This document shows positions 5,329-53,435 of a DNA stretch of 64,000 bases, in pieces (position 1 is the stretch's first letter; every line of letters begins with the position of its first letter). The DNA lies in NCBI RefSeq assembly GCF_023055435.1, contig NW_025964372.1:7626001-7690000 (forward strand). The letters are read 5' to 3'. Below the pieces are notes generated by a model. It ran no database searches, was not told the origin of the DNA, and was given only the letters and a program-made list of their open reading frames with translations. The position numbers and the translations under genes were made by a program. The DNA comes from Haliotis rufescens. Lineage: Eukaryota.

Positions 5329-5592
5329 ATGGAGGCTACATGTTGTACATATCAGAATGCCTTGTACTTGATGGAAACCAGGCAGAGAAAAGGATTGTTT
5401 GGCCCCATTTACAGACAAGAAAGATGTCTCTTGGCAATTGCCTGCCTGTAACATTTACGACCCCAAAATTCAGCTCCTTAATTAATGTTTTAAATGTATT
5501 GGAGTGGTCATACACAGATGATCAGTGAAGCTTGCATTGTAGTAGCTCTGTTGGCATCAAGTGTATTGTAAATGTATATTGCCACAACCCAG

Positions 5593-5791
5593 ATTGTATG
5601 GCAAGCCGTGTGCCACGTACGAGACAGCATCGCTGCGTCGGTTCCTGCATGGCCGCACCGACACCATCAGATCCTGCTCCATCGACTCCTTCAACTTCAC
5701 CAAGGCCATGCTGGACAGCTCTGTGTCACAGGAGGTCAAGGTCGACCTCTTCAAGAAGGCTGTCCTGGCTCACAGGAAGTACACTGATGAG
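5593..5791 (+). CDS. CRAT: CRAT internal exon
   Basis: cccag|...|gtcagc. LYGKPCATYETASLRRFLHGRTDTIRSC...HRKYTDE carries the TYExASxRxFxxGRTDTIRS motif. Confidence 0.95.
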
Positions 5792-6110
5792 GTCAGCAAT
5801 GATTGTTTACATGTGATTCTCTTCTGTTTAGAAAAAGGCTTTCTACTCGTTTCCTCTTCTGCTTTACGTTACAAGGAGATCATATGTAAATTTTGGGTGG
5901 ATGTGCAATTTGTGTTGCGATATTGGATAAAGAGATGGTGTGCAATTTCTGTTGTGGTGTAGAAGTGGTATAGGAAAATATACAACTCTATGGATAGTAA
6001 CTTCTAGAATGCCAATCAAACATTGATTGTTGCTATTCTGGTTATTGAAAAACTTGATTTAAATGACACTGAAAGATCTTTGAACACGACATGTATTTAC
6101 CTGTAGATTT

Positions 6111-35976: not shown

Positions 35977-36199
35977 GAAGGCTATCGAGTGTCTTTAAGT
36001 CTTTATTCGTGGCAGTTAAATGCATAACACAACTTTGGCCTAGATCAAATTACTGTCGGGCCTCGATATGGCGAATTAACTGGGAGCTCGCCTTGAAACA
36101 AGAGAGGAGAGAGCTATGAGGCCCAAGGTCAATCAAGTGTTTAACATATAAATGTATTCCAAAATAATGACAAACAACGGTAATAATGATAATGATATC

Positions 36200-36760
36200 C
36201 TAAAATGTTCAAGGGGGTTCAAATCTTGGCTCATTGCTGGCCAGGGTAGAGTCGTTATTGCATTGGCCCTCATGTAATCCATGACTGCATGCGAACGATG
36301 AGGCCTGAAAGTGCTGAAACGACGGTTGGGCAACCACAGCTGTTTCAGACGAGTACTTGTTAAAAAGGGTTCTCGGCGTATGAGATGAAGAATGTCCCTT
36401 TCTTCGCGATGTGTTGTCACAGGTGGTCTTCCGGATCTGGGACGCTCCCGTTCATAACCAGTCTGAGCATATTTCTCGACTAAACGGCTTACGACAGTGT
36501 GATACCCCAAATTCCGACCAATGGCATTACAAGACACTCTTGTGTTATGCATGCCGATTATTTGCCATCTTGTGGTGTTTGTTGTCCACATAATCGCCTT
36601 CGTGCCGTGTTTGATAATCGCCTTCGTGCCATGGTCACACAATGTCATTGAATAACTGTTGAAAACCGAGCTAAAGAAAGCAATTTTGACGTTTGGATAT
36701 ACTCCTTTTAGAGATACTCGAGGGTAGCATGCTGCACGGGCAATACCATGCATGGCACAT
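36200..36760 (-). mobile_element. Internally deleted Tc1/mariner transposase
   Basis: HTH region WQIIGM...RPRSGRPPVTT is fused directly to the C-terminal PH...LPWPAMSQDLNPLEH (WPxxSPDLNPIE motif). Most of the catalytic core is missing. Confidence 0.85.
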
Positions 36761-36830
36761 AGTGATCTTCTTTAGGTAAATATGACGTCAGTAGTATATA
36801 GTGCACTTATGTCCGTTTTTTAATCGCAGC

Positions 36831-44080: not shown

Positions 44081-44435
44081 GACCCCAGAAGACCCGGGGT
44101 AGATTAGGTCTTCAGCAACCCATGCTTGCCATAAAAGGCGACTATGCTTCCGGTAAGAGGCGACTAACGGGATCGGGTGGTCAGGTTCGCTGACTTGGTT
44201 TGATGCATGTCATCGTGTCCCAATTGCGTGGATCGATGCTCATGATATCAGTCACTGGATTGTCTAGCCCAGACTCGATTATTTACAGACCGCCGTCATA
44301 TAGCTGGAATATTGCTGAGTGCGGCGTTAAACAACAAACAAACAATATAACAAATAATTGTTGTGTTTCCATAATATATAACACCATACCATATTCGCTT
44401 TGATGCGAGGTTACAGCGGTACTAGTCTAGATAAA
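44081..44435 (+). mobile_element. SINE family A plus ~90-bp extra 3' segment inside one TSD
   Basis: 13-bp direct repeat TGCAAGAAACTGG at 44068-44080 and 44436-44448. Confidence 0.8.
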
Positions 44436-44827
44436 TGCAAGAAACTGGTTTTCGCAAGTGCCATAAACAATGACACACTTGTCCCTGTCAGAAAAAACAG
44501 TTAACTCCGTCACCAGGGTGAATTGATTGATCAATAGTGATGGTTAAATAGTGACAGTCAGTATACATTATCTACCTTTGCGAGACGAACAGACCGTGAC
44601 AAGGGAACGCAAATACACAGAGCTGAGTGATTAATGATAAATGACACTCGAGCAGGCGTTGACAGACACTTTCATCGCAACACAAACCACCCGGGCACGT
44701 GACACCCGGATATGTACACCACGTGACCGTTAGCGTTTACATATAACACATATTGTATGAGCGGAGGTACTTCTGTCGGGATTTAGTAAACGATATATTA
44801 CACAGTCAACGCTTTAAGAATCTAGCC

Positions 44828-44859
44828 ATGGCCAGTGTTGTGGTCGAAATTGAATACTG
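44828..44859 (+). CDS. MIEN1: Selenoprotein W2 / MIEN1 (Rdx family), exon 1
   Basis: gccATGG Kozak; MASVVVEIEY-TG|gtaagt. Confidence 0.9.
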
Positions 44860-46834
44860 GTAAGTAGTTCAAGCTGTTTAAATTCATTGGTTTTTTTACC
44901 TGTGTAAATCGTACAAAGCTCAAGAGTACAGTTACTTAAAGCAGGACATCCTGTTTGACTGCAAGTTCTCTATTATAATACGGAAATGAGGTATTAATAG
45001 GGCCTCGTGGTACCATTTGAGCTCGACTAGGGAGGGAATGGTTGTTTAAAAAAGTAGAAACTGGTCCATTTTCTCGTCACTGTCGAATAGATGTAAATGA
45101 AATTATTTCATGTCGTAATATGCAAGGTATGTGCCGACTTATTTAATCCATTCATGGATGGAACCCGTTTGAATGGACCCAGGCTCAGAGACGAATTGAA
45201 AAGATATAAAGCATCGTAATATACGTAATATGTGTCCAGGAAATATATATTTTTCATGCCAGTGTCCTTTATATTCCACAGTGTGTTTGCAGGTTGAGAA
45301 CTCATATCGATTATACATTGTTCTTTCCGATCAATACACTTCGCCATTTGTCCACAGTCACTAATGTACATTAGTGCACGTCAGGTCAGTCGGCTGATAG
45401 CCGTATGTACTCGCCATGACAGTGGACATGATCATTGTGTGACTGTCCAATATCTCGATCATAACAGATATAGGTCAGTACATTTATGTTGACGCGCGAG
45501 GTTCATCTCCTGGGGGAATGAAAACTAGCTGAGTCATTGTGCAGTCGCGCAATGTCATGGAGCGCGTTATGTTGGCGCAGTCGCAATACAAAGACAAATC
45601 CCGTCACGGTAGCTGTAGGCTTAGTGTACCGAGTCGTGCGTGATCCGAATTCTTCACCAGGTGTAGATATAGTGACACCTGCAGCTGCTTAGTCATCTAG
45701 GCCTCTAGGGTCGGGTAGTTTAACTTTTCATGAACTCTTGTAAACAAATTTGTCGTTGGAGCAGTTTAGCATTTGAATCACACATAGATCGATCTACCTG
45801 TCCTGTCAGGATTCGCCTGTACATTTATACGATAGGTGACAAAGGATCCCACGTTGATGTCCAAAGTCGGTCAAAGTATTGGCACCGTGCCAGATTACGG
45901 ACTACACGCAGTCGGGGTGTGACAGGAAACAAACACGGCCAGCACGTGCAGACACGAGTTTCTAGAGAAGGAGGGGTGCTTTTTGTCACACCCTAACATA
46001 TAGCAAAATCAAGATGAAAGCAAATTCTTCGCAAAGCAATTTGGTAGTTATATTTTTGGGGAAACATCACCAAATGAGTTTAACTGCCTAGCAATGAAAG
46101 TCAAACAAGAATTCGATGGTGATCGATATTCCAGCCATATGATGGCGGTCTGTGACCAACTCTGACAACTGGGGTATCTCACTAATGGCGTTTGACCTCT
46201 GACAATAACCTTTGATACGCTGTATTTGTGCCAAGGCCCAATTAGTACTAATTGAGTTGTTTGAATATTTATATATTTTATATATTAACTGCATTTATTT
46301 AAAATCTGAGATCGAAAAAACAGGGTTTTTTTCATTTCCGTGAGTACTTTAGTGACAACTTAGGTAACAGAGTCAGGACATGTCTGTTTTCAAAGATACC
46401 CTTCAAATTAACGTAACCTCATAAAACTACGAAATAATTGACGAAAAATCATAAACATTTTAGAAAGTTGTTTTTGTTTTGAAATTACTAAATATCTCAT
46501 GTTAAATGTTTTCAATTAATGTCACACTGAAATTTCTGCCAGATGCACTTACAGAATATCATTAGTTGCAGCTTCCGCCAGTTAGTGAGTGAGTGGGTTG
46601 GGTTTAACGCCGCTTGTTTCAGTATTTCCGTTACATCACGGGGTGTCAGTTGAATGTGGGAGGAAAGCTCGAAGTGATGCAGATCTCAGACTTCAGCGAA
46701 ACCCACGAGCACAGTATGATGCTGACAAACCTGAAACATCTCCTTTCAGGGGAAATATGGGGGTATTGAAACACGTTGTCCTGACGTCACGCCATGGTCA
46801 TAGTTGAAACTTAGGTGCCACACTTAAACGGACA

Positions 46835-47090
46835 CCCGTGAAGATCCGGTTAGAATTGGTCTTCATCCTTGCCATAACAGGCGACTTTTCTTGTCGCAAG
46901 AGGCGACTGACGGGATCGGGTGGTCAGGCTCGCTGTCTTGGTAAATGCATGTCATCGTATCCCAATTGCGTAGCTCGATGCTCATGTTGTCGATCACTGG
47001 ATTGTATGGTCCAGACTATATTACTTAAAGACAGCCATCATGTAGCTGGAATATTGCAGAGTGCGGCGTTGAACAACAAACAAACAAACC
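46835..47090 (+). mobile_element. SINE family A
   Basis: Full-length copy in selenoprotein intron 1. Confidence 0.8.
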
Positions 47091-47194
47091 TCTTTAACGG
47101 AGTTCCATAGGCGTAAAAGTTCTATTCAAGTATCGAGTTTTAAGTCACAGCGGTGTTTCAGATAAAGTGTTTGATGCTGATCACTGTGTTTCAG

Positions 47195-47289
47195 TGGCGG
47201 ATGAGGCTACGCTCCTCGGTACGGGAAGCTGAGGAACTACCTCGCTTCCAAGACCGGGGCTGGCGTCAGCGGCAGGGTGGGGCGCAGGG
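47195..47289 (+). CDS. MIEN1: Selenoprotein W2 / MIEN1 exon 2, containing the Sec codon TGA (47202-47204)
   Basis: tttcag|T GGC GGA TGA GGC TAC = C-G-G-U-G-Y (CxxU), then APRYGKLRNYLASKTGAGVSGRVGRR|gtaagt. Confidence 0.92.
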
Positions 47290-47324
47290 GTAAGTAGATG
47301 TCTGGCTACTCACAGGTGGGGGAT

Positions 47325-47605
47325 GTAGAGTGAGTGAGAGAGTCAGTTGGGTTTTTCGCCGCTTTTAACAGTATTCCAGATATATCATATATCACGACGT
47401 GTCAGCCTGATGTGGGAGGAAAGCCCGAAATGAAGCAGGTCTCAGACGTTTACCACTTTGGTGAAACCCGCGAGATCGGGTATGGTGCTGACAAACCTAG
47501 AAGCATAATAGGGGCGAACAGGGATTCGAACCCACAATCATAGGTTGCTGGCGTGCCCAAGGCGAATCGCGGCGCCTTAGACGACTGGGCCACCCGTGCC
47601 CCCTG
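47325..47605 (-). mobile_element. tRNA-derived SINE family B
   Basis: Reverse-complement copy. Partial copies also at ~46585-46740 and ~52700-52767. Confidence 0.8.
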
Positions 47606-47607
47606 GG

Positions 47608-47773
47608 GGTGGAGAGAGAACAGGGGTAAGTATGTGTGTATGCCCCCGGGTGGTGTAGAGAGAACAGGGGTAAGTATGTGTGTATGCCCCCGGGTGGTGT
47701 AGAGAGAACAGGGGTAAGTATGTGTGTATGCCCCCGGGTGGTGTAGAGAGAACAGGGGTAAGTATGTGTGTAT
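47608..47773 (+). repeat. 44-bp minisatellite x~4 carrying CAGGG|GTAAGT
   Basis: Unit gtagagagaacaggggtaagtatgtgtgtatgcccccgggtggt. Confidence 0.9.
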
Positions 47774-47949
47774 GCGAAATGTTTTATCTCAGGGCACTGA
47801 AAGTATTGACAATGTGCATCAGAAATAATAATTATTTGCTCAAAAAACAATGTTACTTATCGTGGGTTAATTTAAACTCGCATCCGTGTGATCCAGTTTT
47901 ACAATTACTGCTAAACTGAACTAAGACAAATCACTACATGATAACCCTG

Positions 47950-48142
47950 ATGATGCTTGTCGTAAGAGGCGACTAACGGGATCGGGTGGTCAGGCCCGCT
48001 GACTTGGTTGATGCATGTCATCGTATCCCAATTGAGTGGATCGATGCACATGATATCATTCACTGGACCACTCGAGTATTTACATACCGCCGTCATATAG
48101 CTGTAATATTCCTGAGTGCGGCGTTAAACAACAAACCACCAA
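47950..48142 (+). mobile_element. SINE family A, 5'-truncated, abutting the exon 3 acceptor
   Basis: Tail ends ~20 nt before the AG at 48161. Confidence 0.8.
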
Positions 48143-48162
48143 ATCGTTGTTTGTTGTTGCAG

Positions 48163-48239
48163 GTTCGTTTGAAGTGACTGTGAACGGCAAGCTGGTGTTC
48201 TCTAAGTTGAAGGTCGGATCATTCCCCTACGACGAGGAT
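48163..48239 (+). CDS. MIEN1: Selenoprotein W2 / MIEN1 exon 3
   Basis: ttgcag|[26 protein letters not shown]|gtaagt, the Rdx signature GxFEVxVNGxLVFSKxxxGxFP. Confidence 0.93.
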
Positions 48240-48286
48240 GTAAGTATTCAAGTTGCTATGTCGTTATGGCGTTGTGAAATACTTAA

Positions 48287-48940
48287 AGGGGAAGTGTACA
48301 CGCAAAAATCACTTTCTTTCTTTTTCTAAACAAAACGCAATTTTAGAATTAGTTAGTATCTGTGTTTGAAAATATACACTCATTTTTTCTCACAGTGAAA
48401 GTAGGAAGCTCACAATAGTGTTAAAATGATATGCCGTTATGAGGCCTTCGTTTTACGAGCAAAATAGGCCTGAGTTATCCCCCTTAGATTATGACGTAAT
48501 TGGTGCTAATTCAACTGGGTCCCTGTCTATTCTCAACGCAAAAGATATCAAGGACCAGTTTTTATGTAAAACAACATGGTCTACGACACACTCCGGCGCA
48601 GTGGTGACTCAGTATAACACAATTCTGGCTGGCATCTGAGACGCTAAAATCACAAAACTGTACCTACACCACGTGAAGCGGCTCTAACAAAGCATGATGA
48701 CGTCATAATGTTTATCAAATGGCACCAATGACGTCATATTGCAAGGGGCATAAGCCATGGTGTTTTTGTTATGGAAATAGAACACTTAGTAAATGTGAAA
48801 AATATAAATCGTTTTAATGCAAAAAATATGTTAATTAAATATGATGTTTTTATATTTTTGTCTATGACACTTCTATGTTAACACTTTTAATGTGGAAAAA
48901 GTACAAGAAAAATTGGTTCATTTCCGTGTGAACTTGCCCT
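48287..48940. mobile_element. TTAA-flanked non-autonomous DNA transposon (Kolobok-like)
   Basis: TTAA|AGGGGAAGTGTACACG ... CGTGTGAACTTGCCCT|TTAA. Confidence 0.7.
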
Positions 48941-49164
48941 TTAAACGTTAGCCACAGTCACACAACGTCAATTGTCAACATTGTCACCGTATACCCAACT
49001 ATTGGAGGTCAACCCATACAGAATATATGGCAGAGTTGTAGCCGTCAGTGAAATCAAACGAAATGAAGTAAACAAAGGTCACGTGATGGTGAACGTGTAT
49101 TTTACTAAAGGAAACAATATAAGCGGATGAATACACAATGCCATTCAGAAAGTGGTCAAATGTA

Positions 49165-49373
49165 ACACATGTTATATTTGGGATTACACTTTCTAAGTCA
49201 ATGTGGAAGCCTCAGTGGCTGAGTGGGTGACTCGTAGATCGCTGACTGTGTGTGCTAGCGATTAGGTGCCTCACTCTGGCAGTGCTGGTTCGAATCCCGG
49301 ATGGGACTCAACCCCCAAACGTACTAGAATATGTACTTCACTATGAAAGTGTAATCCCACATATAACATTTGT
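49165..49373. mobile_element. TA-flanked MITE enclosing a tRNA-like Pol III promoter
   Basis: ~29-bp TIRs acacatgttatatttgggattacactttc / gaaagtgtaatcccacatataacatttgt; internal TGGCTGAGTGG and GGTTCGAATCCC. Confidence 0.7.
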
Positions 49374-50333
49374 TAAAATATATGCGAACATGGATAAATA
49401 ATACAGGAATCACCGCCATATTTAAAACTAAAAAAATTATTTATATGTGATTTGAAATTTGGCATGTTTGTAGTCAGAGACCGTATACCGACATATGGTA
49501 TCTGGTGTAGGTAATAGTGGACCTTAAAATATATGTTCCATTGTTTTGCGATGTCATGGTTTTTCACTTTGATTTGACCTCTAAATAGTTTGTGTCACCA
49601 CAGTGAATAGACTGTATTAATATCAAATTGGATGAAACATTGGAAAAGAGTATCTTAGACCCCAATGCAGACAAGCCAGCCTCCACGTTTCCTTTCTTTA
49701 TGACCGGTAAAGAAATACACCACTACTTCGGCAGTAGAGGCTTATTTTGTTCAAATCATTATGATTTTACTTTATTTTGTTTCTGATAAGACATGTAAAA
49801 ATCAAATTTTACAAAAAGTTTCAAAAATGTAATCTTAAGAACCACAGGGCACCTAAAGCTGAACTTTGCGAGAATGGAAATGACAAAAGTAGATTCAGGA
49901 TTGTTCAGCATCAAGTCTGGCTCTCAACTTTGAAAAAATGCAGTGTTTTCCTCTTATTCCAAGAATCTATTGCACCCAGTTTTCTTTTCTAGTTAGAATG
50001 TGTTATGTTCGCCTGTTTACACCTGGTCCTGTTACAGTCACCCGGAGTGTAGGCTCTTGAAGCTGTGGCTTTCAGTGGGACTCCTCCCAAACATCGGGTT
50101 TATCATTTGGATGTACTTGACTGTATTACTTGTTGACACGAGGAGGTAGGATAAGAATAACACGTAGGATCAGACACGTACAAATGGCTCATGTCTTGCC
50201 TTTATTTCTCCCTTTTTGGATTTCTGACGTAATCAAATACAACAGTATGGCTTAATGAGGTTAAGAGGCCCATTTTTCGAACAGGAATATGAGCAAGTTC
50301 GAGACCCACAGATCATCTATCTACATCTCTTAA

Positions 50334-50876
50334 CATCTTCCCGAGACAAGAGAGTTAACTGACTTTAAAAGTCCAGTTTCCACCCTTACAGAACTAGCCT
50401 GGAATTACTGGGCTCGATCGTAGCGCCACCAGTGGCTTTTACCAGTTATGTCCCTTCTAAGCCTCTCCTATGGACCAATCAGATTCCACCCCTCGTATCA
50501 CTTGCATTTGCTTCAAACAAAATGGCGGCGCCCAGTAAGGACGATCTGATCGATAATCAAGATCTATATTGTGATAAAACGGGTCTTACATCGCGAAATG
50601 CATCAAATCACGTGAGCACATTGATTAAAACATGAAAAGAATTGGAAAATATCTGCTTACAACGAGTTGGCGGTGTACACGCTCTGCAAACCCTGCAATC
50701 GACCGAAATCTGTACGACACTTTACGAACCGGATTTCGATTTCGTTGCGCGATTTTGATTGGACTTTGCATAGACTCGTTAGTCCAGCCAAAATGTAACT
50801 CGAAAATACCAGCCTAGTTCGGCAAGGGTGGAAACTGGACTTTATAGTCAGCTAACTCCCTTGCCTCGGGAAGATG
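50334..50876. mobile_element. Second copy of the same Mutator-like MITE (selenoprotein intron 3)
   Basis: Same TIRs and interior as 3035-3560, degenerate 9-bp TSD ATCTCTTAA/ATCTCCTAG. Fragments also at ~150-195 and ~6686-6765. Confidence 0.85.
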
Positions 50877-51184
50877 ATCTCCTAGGAAATCAGCTCAGGT
50901 CAAAAACTTTCTCATGTTGAAATATTCGAAAACTATTCCTGAAATGTCTACCACGGGATATTTGAACGTTTAGCATTACCTTTGCACTTGATGTTCTACG
51001 TCACAAATACCGGAATGTATTTGCTGAAATGAACCAAGTCTCATTCTCATTGTATGAACACATCTCATAGCTCCCTTAATGATTTGTGGGATTTTCCTCG
51101 TTTCCTAAATTATTGATATCCCATGGGTTAAAGAAGGCGCTTATCATCGATTGTCCTTCTGATTTCAATGTCTACTGTTGCCAG

Positions 51185-51271
51185 ATTCTGGAGGCGGTCA
51201 ATCAAGCCAAGCAAGGCATGCCGCCCAAAACCATCACAGAAGGTCAAGGTGGGAGCTGTGTCATTCTGTAG
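51185..51271 (+). CDS. MIEN1: Selenoprotein W2 / MIEN1 exon 4, with CaaX box
   Basis: ccag|ILEAVNQAKQGMPPKTITEGQGGSCVIL*. The CVIL terminus is as in vertebrate MIEN1/SelW2; total 96 aa. Confidence 0.92.
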   Translation: MLEAVNQAKQGMPPKTITEGQGGSCVIL

Positions 51272-51324
51272 ACACATGTGACATTCAGAACACACCGGTC
51301 GTCAAAGAAACTCTGTGTCTACGC

Positions 51325-51395
51325 CCGAGCTGCTGCCCGAATGATGGCCTGTTCAGAAATCTCCTTGCACTGGCTTAATGTGCCGCGGAGCTCGG
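51325..51395 (+). promoter_or_regulatory. SECIS element (type I shape, non-canonical 3' core)
   Basis: Helix I ccgagct(g)ctgc/gcggagctcgg; ATGA at 51341; 11-position helix II ggcctgttcag/ttgcactggct; AAA at 51357; TAAT rather than TGAT at 51376. Confidence 0.75.
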
Positions 51396-51581
51396 ACCGA
51401 GGCACCGATTCCTATTTGATGATCGGATCGCAATGGACGTGTTTTGACATTATTTATTATTTATATTTTACTGCTGAAATGATACTCCACTCCAATTATT
51501 GATATTATTTTTTCACATCTTTCACTTCATTGAACTTAAGCTACAACTATGCAGTGTTCCATCCGTAAAATGATAATGTTA

Positions 51582-51587
51582 AATAAA
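51582..51587 (+). terminator. Poly(A) signal of the selenoprotein gene
   Basis: First AATAAA after the stop codon and SECIS, followed by T/GT-rich sequence. Confidence 0.6.
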
Positions 51588-52930
51588 CTGTTTTTACATG
51601 GGTTATTTGTCGAAAAGATTTTTCTCCATTACGATACCTCTCTGTGGAAAAATCTGGCATCCCCTTCATAGGACGTCGCTCCAGATGAACTTTCTGATGA
51701 ATCAATTAGCACGGGGGCTTCTATATTCAGAACAGCAATTTTGATTTGTGTATCTTCAAAACGAGCTTAAACGGCCAGTTCCGAATGTACATAATAAAGG
51801 CCAAGTATTTATATTGCAACAATAGCGTGTTTCCAATACCACCGAACAAAATAAATGTGGATTCGCTGTCAAACTGATTCGAAGTTGATTTTGTTTTCAT
51901 TGTTTGTGCAATCCGTTTTCGGGAGGAATGTCAATCGGGATGAAAAGTGATTATTAGCACTATTTCAGCAATAATAAGACAGGGTACACCAGAAACAGGC
52001 TTCACACAATGTACCAATGTAGGGAATCGAACATTAGCGTGACGAGCGCACGCTTTATCCACTATCGCAACTTAACTTTAAATTAAATAAAATTTAGAAT
52101 TTGTATAGCGCATTTTCCAATAAACAACTGCTCAAATGCGCTTAGACCATGAATAATTTACTCAAAGGCTCTCTTGATGAGACAGGTTTTGAGGGTCTTT
52201 TTAAAGTTTGTCAGATTTTTTGTTTCTCGGATTTCTTGTGGCAAATTGTTCCATAATGACCTATTGCCAGATGGTTTGGTACGTGACATTGCCAACACCA
52301 ACAGATGTTGATCTTCTGATCGGAGAGAACGTGCAGACTTGTATGGTACTATCAGTTCATGTAACTATGCAGGAACCAAACTATGCATTGCCTTGTGAAC
52401 CAGAGTGAGTAGTTTAAATTGCACTTCTTGTTGGAATGGCATTCAGTGTAGTTCAGTCAATATGAGTGAAGTGTCCTCGTTAAGGTGTTCTTGTCGGAAT
52501 TCTTGCAGCTGTATTCTGAACACGCTGTAGCGTTTCTGCATCCTTCTGTGGTAGGCCATAGAAGAGGGAATTACAATAGTCCTACCAGGAGACTACAAAA
52601 AGCTTGGGTCAACGTTGAAGGGGAAACCAGCTTACCTCGTATAAAGACGGGCACCAACGTGGTAAAAATCTGAGACCAGCCCCACTACGACTTCCCTCAC
52701 ACATTAAGCTGACACACAGTGACGATACTGTTCAAAGCGGCGTTAAACCCTACTCACTCACTCACTCGGATAAAGAACGTACGCAGAAGCCCATAGGTTT
52801 AGGCACTCACACAGGCCTACAGTGGCTATATTATCATACCTCCATGTCAGAATGATGAGAACTGATTGGTAAACGTGATCTTGATAAAATACTGTGTGAC
52901 CCGCCTTGGAGGATAATAAATTTCTCAGCC

Positions 52931-52932
<2 letters not shown>

Positions 52933-52971
<39 letters not shown>
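52933..52971. repeat. (GT)n microsatellite
   Basis: Pure GT run. Confidence 0.95.
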
Positions 52972-52974
<3 letters not shown>

Positions 52975-53435
52975 TTTCTTATACCCCGCCACGAGTAATA
53001 CAGGCTGCACGTGGATTTCTGACAGGCAGAAGCACAAAACCCCATGTATCCCTCGTGATCCTGCTCCAACGAGCATTGTTGCAGTGGGTATCGTCGAGAT
53101 AACACAGGCAGTGTGTTAACGTAAAACTAATCTTGCTTAGTTGGAATATAAACTGATGGTGAACGTATACTCAAAGGCAAAAGTTATTGTGACAGTTTTG
53201 TTTCATTTACAAATATTTATATCAATGTCTGGCTTTGAACCAAGGGAAATGTTTATGAAAAAGCACGAAGTATCCCAATCAATCAAATGTCGCTGGTATT
53301 GCATGTGTTTTGCCAGAAATAATGAATACTTGGGTGAAATTGCTTCAGATGTTCTCTATGAAAGGCCAAATGTCGAATCCCATACCAATGCCACTCTATG
53401 CAATCACTTTCGGTCGATTTGATGATATTTCACCA

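Follow-up and report, generated by a model that had tools for sequence, protein, structure and literature searches.

A spliced SELENOW2/MIEN1-family gene of the abalone Haliotis rufescens with a predicted SECIS element of variant core

We analyzed a 64,000-nucleotide stretch of the Haliotis rufescens genome (RefSeq assembly GCF_023055435.1, contig NW_025964372.1, positions 7,626,001 to 7,690,000 of the forward strand), hereafter the window, which contains a small gene with an in-frame TGA at 44828–51271. The gene is a spliced member of the SELENOW2/MIEN1 family. Its UGA is probably read as selenocysteine (Sec) with the help of a predicted selenocysteine insertion sequence (SECIS) element that has an A.A pair in its core, and the product is probably a geranylgeranylated redox enzyme of the membrane. 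The gene adds a member to a known family, and the protein itself is not new. What is unusual about the gene is its SECIS element, which varies a known type and departs from that type in one defining feature. A sequence-only reading that had earlier described the gene did not look for this element. All window features described below lie on the forward strand unless stated otherwise.

The coding sequence comprises 291 nt in four exons of 32, 95, 77, and 87 nt, giving 96 codons followed by TAG. The coding part of exon 1 (44828–44859) ends in phase 2 within the Cys codon of a CxxU motif and is followed by intron 1 (44860–47194), exon 2 (47195–47289), intron 2 (47290–48162), exon 3 (48163–48239), intron 3 (48240–51184), and the coding part of exon 4 with the stop codon (51185–51271). 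Donor sites read GTAAGT, acceptor sites end in CAG, and the three intron phases are 2, 1, and 0. The sole internal stop of the joined frame is the TGA of codon 14 (47202–47204), the predicted Sec of C-G-G-U. The 5′ untranslated part of exon 1 covers 44729–44827 as far as contigs reach (the X1 contig begins at 44730 and the X12 contig at 44729), and the true start may differ. A likely polyadenylation signal, AATAAA, is present at 51850–51855, with contig ends at 51868–51877 as a weak hint in its favor. The introns are filled with high-copy interspersed repeats (for example at 44088–44345, 46839–47089, 47954–48151, and 50400–50900). One interspersed repeat family has more than 10 copies within the window, and a short repeat of about 49 nt is arrayed in tandem at 47600–47780.

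Splicing is evident in contigs from sequencing runs, which were aligned over 44600–52200. In each of four runs out of four (three studies, organisms A and C), a single contig of 986–1011 nt skips all three introns at their exact GT..AG ends; that these runs are RNA is a guess, as their nature is not on record. The exon 2 segment is reported for run X1 alone, where it has no differing letters, and the TGA therefore sits in a spliced contig. The sequence-only reading had proposed a canonically spliced, four-exon, 96-residue frame with TGA at codon 14 and had named spliced reads across the three introns as a check. The exon join and the contigs bear out the frame, and contigs joining the exons in all four of the runs guessed to be RNA supply the check. 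A search of the genome with the 3′ untranslated region (3′UTR) finds one copy, and a search with the protein finds two loci only, both with introns, which are the sole SelW2-like loci found in the genome. Since the 3′UTR is single-copy and no intronless copy was found beside these two loci, a DNA retrocopy is not indicated.

The predicted fold and the nearest named relatives were assigned from single exons and from a full-length relative (L037). Exon 3, which encodes the core of the Rdx domain, matches Pfam PF10262 (Rdx) on its own with 23.4 bits against a cut-off of 22.6, and scores 31.9 bits over 25 residues against TIGR02174, below the cut-off of 34.2. Its best and only match in the PDB is 2LJK, human MIEN1/C17orf37 (E 1.2e-5), and the match suggests a thioredoxin-like fold for the window protein. 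Relative L037 gives 70 bits against MIEN1 and 33 against SelW, and the MIEN1-like protein P0003 shows 52% identity. Exon 2 alone gave no family-profile match; it gave no homologue among cluster representatives, and the exon 3 frame gave none in a word-index search, each query being too short for the search in question. The motif C11-G-G-U14 lies near the N-terminus. The proposed membership of the Rdx family with a CxxU motif is thus upheld by the Pfam match, by C-G-G-U, and by MIEN1 as the closest solved structure.

Within this family, SELENOW2 is the better name. In the text available of PMC13134290, invertebrate genes of the group are SELENOW2, MIEN1 arose by duplication at the root of the gnathostomes, and fish MIEN1 keeps Sec. 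Because the window gene comes from an abalone and the invertebrate genes are placed in SELENOW2, it falls outside strict MIEN1 orthology and is at best a co-orthologue of MIEN1. Of the label "SelW2/MIEN1 orthologue" given to it by the sequence-only reading, the SelW2 part stands, and the MIEN1 part was loose given the date of the duplication. The description of the gene as hidden overstated its novelty, as invertebrate SelW2 genes are already in print (PMC3828610, available portion). The expectation that automatic annotation would truncate or miss such a gene holds in relatives, on whose models alone this point is judged: the two complete, named NCBI "MIEN1-like" models found, from a clam and a brittle star (P0005 and P0007), do not contain the CxxU start, which is what one would expect if UGA is taken as a stop. 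A 19-row tree is for the most part unresolved (83/89) and has no identified vertebrate SELENOW2 among its rows, and therefore does not test the split between SELENOW2 and MIEN1.

The window gene shares with the SELENOW2 genes of invertebrates, fish, and amphibians, as described in the available parts of PMC13134290, PMC3316567, and PMC3828610, the Rdx domain, the N-terminal CxxU, a UGA for the predicted Sec, a candidate 3′UTR SECIS element, and small size. It differs from them in the core of that element, as set out below, and in that this abalone has two copies of the gene, on different contigs. Human MIEN1 (also C17orf37 or Rdx12), the protein of the sole PDB match, differs from the window protein: its motif is CxxC, it lacks Sec, and its N-terminus is longer by about 20 residues.

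The C-terminal residues CVIL, directly before the stop codon (51257–51268), form a CaaX box that fits the substrate pattern of protein geranylgeranyltransferase type I (GGTase-I; C-aliphatic-aliphatic-L) and are a predicted geranylgeranylation site. Human MIEN1 is geranylgeranylated at CVIL by GGTase-I (PMC6738349, portion available), and the identification of the abalone box with this human prenylation motif proved exact, the four residues being identical. Relatives were collected in a scan of metagenome contigs that gave 42 loci. A C-x-x-x-stop ending is present in 20 of the 21 animal-like relatives with a visible C-terminus, some of which are near-duplicates, and TGA occupies the motif position in all of the relatives with a visible motif exon (13 of the 42 loci). 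Sec together with a prenylation box is therefore widespread among animal relatives rather than special to the window gene. We did not find this combination discussed in the literature searched, widespread though it is in the relatives examined. The one exception among the 21, L019, is animal-like, carries CxxU and a SECIS, and ends without a CaaX box.

The second SelW2-like locus, found by sequence search, is a paralogue on another contig of the same genome (G000:C583, L008:7626 to L009:1011). It follows the same four-exon plan (L008 7626–7654 and 9343–9437; L009 206–282 and 925–1011), its intron positions and TGA site are those of the window gene, and it ends in CIIL. Its exon 4 is joined to exon 3 in four of four runs (organisms A, D, E, and F). 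Downstream of the UGA, 46 of 82 codons specify the same amino acid in both genes, with a nonsynonymous divergence (dN) of 0.36 and a synonymous divergence (dS) of 1.17. The resulting dN/dS of about 0.3 indicates purifying selection on a stretch of frame that is translated only if the UGA is read through. Three tRNA-Sec genes with a TCA anticodon are present in the genome, as are canonical SECIS elements in other places, and an L7Ae exon at L069 is one that we take to resemble SBP2 or SBP2L. Taken with the kept TGA and the selection on the downstream frame, these genomic features make insertion of Sec at codon 14 likely. The UGA lies 162 nt upstream of the last exon junction. A true stop so placed would be expected to trigger decay of the transcript; contig depth is no measure of expression, and this point was not counted.

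The candidate SECIS element is a long hairpin in the 3′UTR (51312–51408); in the mRNA it lies 318 nt downstream of the UGA, and it consists of an outer helix, helix I, a 9 × 9 internal loop, helix II, and an apical loop. The 5′ core strand, AUGAU (51341–51345), is canonical by alignment and fold. Helix II, with 9 standard pairs in 11 positions and pair probabilities of 0.68–0.99, and an 8-nt apical loop starting with AAA at 51357 together span 51346–51375. The 3′ core strand, UAAU (51376–51379), has A at 51377 in place of the consensus G, so that the pair at kink-turn position 2b.2n is A.A rather than A.G. The overall layout of helix I, internal loop, helix II within 11–13 nt, and unpaired apical AA is that of a canonical SECIS. 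A similar element is located behind the paralogue (L009:1049–1144), where the shared block and the fold place a core of AUGG/GGAG.

Conservation, covariation, and a SECIS model point to this hairpin as the SECIS. The two 3′UTRs share a single block of about 100 nt, which has a local alignment score of 57 compared with 36 for the best of 1000 Markov controls. Local alignment shows no other part of the 3′UTR to be conserved with the paralogue; within the block, 68 of 97 columns are identical. In both genes it folds alike, as an irregular hairpin of some length (z −2.0 for the window gene and −4.4 for the paralogue). Covariation was assessed over seven elements, namely the two abalone copies and five elements from relatives. 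In helix II, 79% of 77 cells are paired and 9 of 11 pairs have changes on both sides, a level that none of 500 shuffles reached and that exceeds all slid controls. Finally, a SECIS model was built from nine canonical elements of other genes, with neither abalone SELENOW2 copy included. The window hairpin ranks first with this model in the 2 kb at the 3′ end (51200–53200; 17.3 bits, E 0.01), with UAAU aligned to UGAU, and is narrowly first of seven matches in the whole 64 kb. The paralogue hairpin is also ranked first by the model, with 15.2 bits.

Compared with type I eukaryotic SECIS elements (RF00031; consensus UGAN/KGAW with apical AA; PMC3753652 and PMC2761289, as far as available), the window element shares helix I, the internal loop, AUGA, an 11-position helix II, the apical AAA, and G-C at helix II position +2. 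It is unlike them in its unusually long conserved lower stem and in having no Rfam match. Two other arrangements were considered and rejected. One pairs AUGA with the GA at 51398–51399, 53 nt apart, an arrangement into which the paralogue sequence does not fold. The other is a second hairpin, close to 51741, whose core is UUGA/AA and whose loop is long, and which the SECIS model does not support.

Neither abalone copy has the tandem G.A/A.G core (UGAN/KGAW): the window element reads UGAU/UAAU and the paralogue element UGGU/GGAG. The second sheared pair is A.A in the window gene and G.G in the paralogue, against the canonical A.G, and the same kink-turn pair is thus changed in both. The window UAAU appears without change in spliced contigs from all four runs of organisms A and C, as does the AUGG of the paralogue in all four runs from organisms A, D, E, and F; since each recurs in this way, neither core is an assembly error. 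In organisms D, E, and F (three of those four runs), the 3′ core of the paralogue is GGAU, which is also a form taken by this genome's canonical elements and therefore fits the register assigned to the paralogue core. SECIS candidates were found behind 9 of the 21 animal-like relatives, and all nine have UGA/GA, in contrast to UGA/AA in the window gene and UGG/GA in its paralogue; no candidate was found for the other 12, some of which had too little flanking sequence. The three Rfam SECIS matches in this genome are all canonical. Among the genes seen, the variant core is therefore specific to the two SELENOW2 copies. Eukaryotic SECIS elements have been described as universally having the tandem GA core, and the SECISearch3 filter drops candidates without a GA-AG core. 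We found no report of such cores in the literature searched, which was covered in part; the supplements of PMC3753652, PMC3316567, and PMC13134290 could hold such variants. No variant core of this kind appears in the available portions of PMC2375036 or PMC2958745.

Several observations weigh against a functional variant SECIS and against Sec insertion. The z score of the window hairpin is modest, with 8 of 200 shuffles folding as well, and was −0.6 in a first, arbitrary cut. The structure used for the covariation test was derived from the same seven sequences, which biases the test in its favor, and the ends of those sequences were chosen by hand. The SECIS model is weak: over the whole window the hairpin has an E value of 0.33 with a runner-up at 15.3 bits, and the model gives nothing at E ≤1 in 15 other loci. 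A search of both abalone elements with the Rfam SECIS model gave no match at E up to 10, and five relatives' elements score 25–28.5 bits on that model. The dN/dS value comes from one pair of genes and 82 codons with dS above 1.

Studies of kink turns, as far as the available text of PMC5061560 and PMC3985660 goes, suggest how an A.A core could work. Position 2b.2n is the one most often substituted in non-standard turns, and A.A there is isosteric (PMC5061560). An A.A pair at this position is natural but rare, and the example is Kt-23 of Thelohania solenopsae, which folds and binds an L7Ae-family protein (PMC3985660, PMC5061560). An A.A kink turn folds when aided by protein or tertiary contacts, ions do not fold it as a free duplex, and the contact that L7Ae makes with G2n is lost (PMC5061560, PMC3985660). 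Kt-23 shares the A.A pair with the window element and differs from it as an rRNA element with a 3-nt bulge, the window element being a recoding element of an mRNA, with an internal loop and a predicted fold. In vitro, an invertebrate SBP2L can carry out its part in Sec insertion (PMC3328465, part available). We propose that the window SECIS would fold upon SBP2L binding, helped by its long lower stem, and would insert Sec at reduced efficiency. This would yield a thioredoxin-like protein of 96 residues, geranylgeranylated and membrane-bound, that would use its C/U pair for redox chemistry. The paralogue, with its UGG/GA core, may work in the same way, although this is less sure. Its G at 2b is less easily accounted for because A2b makes a key contact (PMC5061560, available text).

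We considered three other explanations of the locus. The variant core could be incidental if the selenoprotein is real and the working SECIS is a different, canonical element, either in a longer 3′UTR or in another register of the hairpin. The contigs do not fix the true transcript ends, and neither the SECIS model nor Rfam is sensitive, which leaves room for such an element. Against it, no canonical core with a closing helix occurs in 51272–51900, and no better SECIS candidate occurs in 51200–53200 with filters off. Other GA partners inside the hairpin fall in helix I or beneath it, and, as noted, the hairpin block is what the paralogue conserves of the 3′UTR. We regard this explanation as very improbable. 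Decay of both SECIS elements, with the UGA acting mostly as a stop and the genes surviving as transcribed relics or yielding only trace protein, is a slim prospect, if marginally less slim. It would account for the loss in both copies of a pair reported as essential, and for the G at 2b of the paralogue, which removes the adenine of the key kink-turn A-minor contact (PMC5061560, available text). However, the helices and the AAA loop are retained with compensatory changes, and both frames are open to the CaaX box with dN/dS near 0.3. The paralogue keeps its exon 4 joined to exon 3 and its AUGG intact in every one of the four runs, and no SelW2-like locus other than these two was found in the genome.

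The third explanation, in which a near-cognate tRNA, that for Cys, Trp, or Arg, decodes the UGA as a step toward a Cys form like that of amniote MIEN1, is the least probable of all. Changes from Sec to Cys and from Sec to Arg are known in the family (available parts of PMC13134290 and PMC3316567). In those cases the codon was altered, whereas here TGA is kept in both copies over a dS of about 1.2. It is kept, moreover, alongside a SECIS-shaped hairpin with AUG(A/G) and AAA. The G that follows the UGA makes a poor context for a leaky stop, which also counts against near-cognate decoding. Recoding of the UGA as Sec through the variant hairpin is thus the explanation that we prefer.

The point of interest is the RNA signal, the protein being an ordinary member of a known family that is often mis-annotated in invertebrates. 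On balance, we favor the broader proposal that the abalone SELENOW2 SECIS elements work without the tandem G.A/A.G, that the A.A and G.G copies would still insert Sec, that tools demanding GA-AG would miss real genes, and that position 2b.2n would tune recoding. Two natural, apparently expressed exceptions at the same pair offer a test case for how much of a kink turn SBP2-type proteins need. The variant cores suggest that searches starting from SECIS elements under-count invertebrate selenoproteins. A lipid-anchored selenoprotein ancestor would also frame human cancer-linked MIEN1 as a Cys relic.

Other selenoprotein-like loci were observed in the same genome. A third Rdx-family gene (L003/L059/L063, G000:C223, minus strand), presumably SelW1-like, has a G-G-TGA-G-Y exon candidate at L063:3465-3488, and no SECIS was found in the 20 kb downstream of it. 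Exons at L005/L061 (G000:C124) and L006/L014 (G000:C605) are ones that we take to be SelH-like and SelT-like, respectively. The SelT-like gene has a canonical SECIS above the Rfam cut-off, and the SelH-like gene a weak canonical candidate (L061:2051-2114, E 1.4). At L015 and L016 (G000:C112), two nearly identical canonical SECIS elements separated by about 63 kb suggest that a selenoprotein gene has been duplicated. More than 40 tandem tRNA-like genes, with identical scores and sub-threshold tRNA-Sec matches, are spaced about 1 kb apart at G000:C113:5559460-5608893.

Two further features lie in the window itself. An open frame on the reverse strand (36136–36771) has a weak HTH_32 match below the cut-off and is likely a remnant of a transposase, which would be Tc1-like by inference. 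A carnitine O-acetyltransferase exon on the forward strand (5546–5959) matches a protein of Haliotis cracherodii, with 96% identity across the portion aligned.

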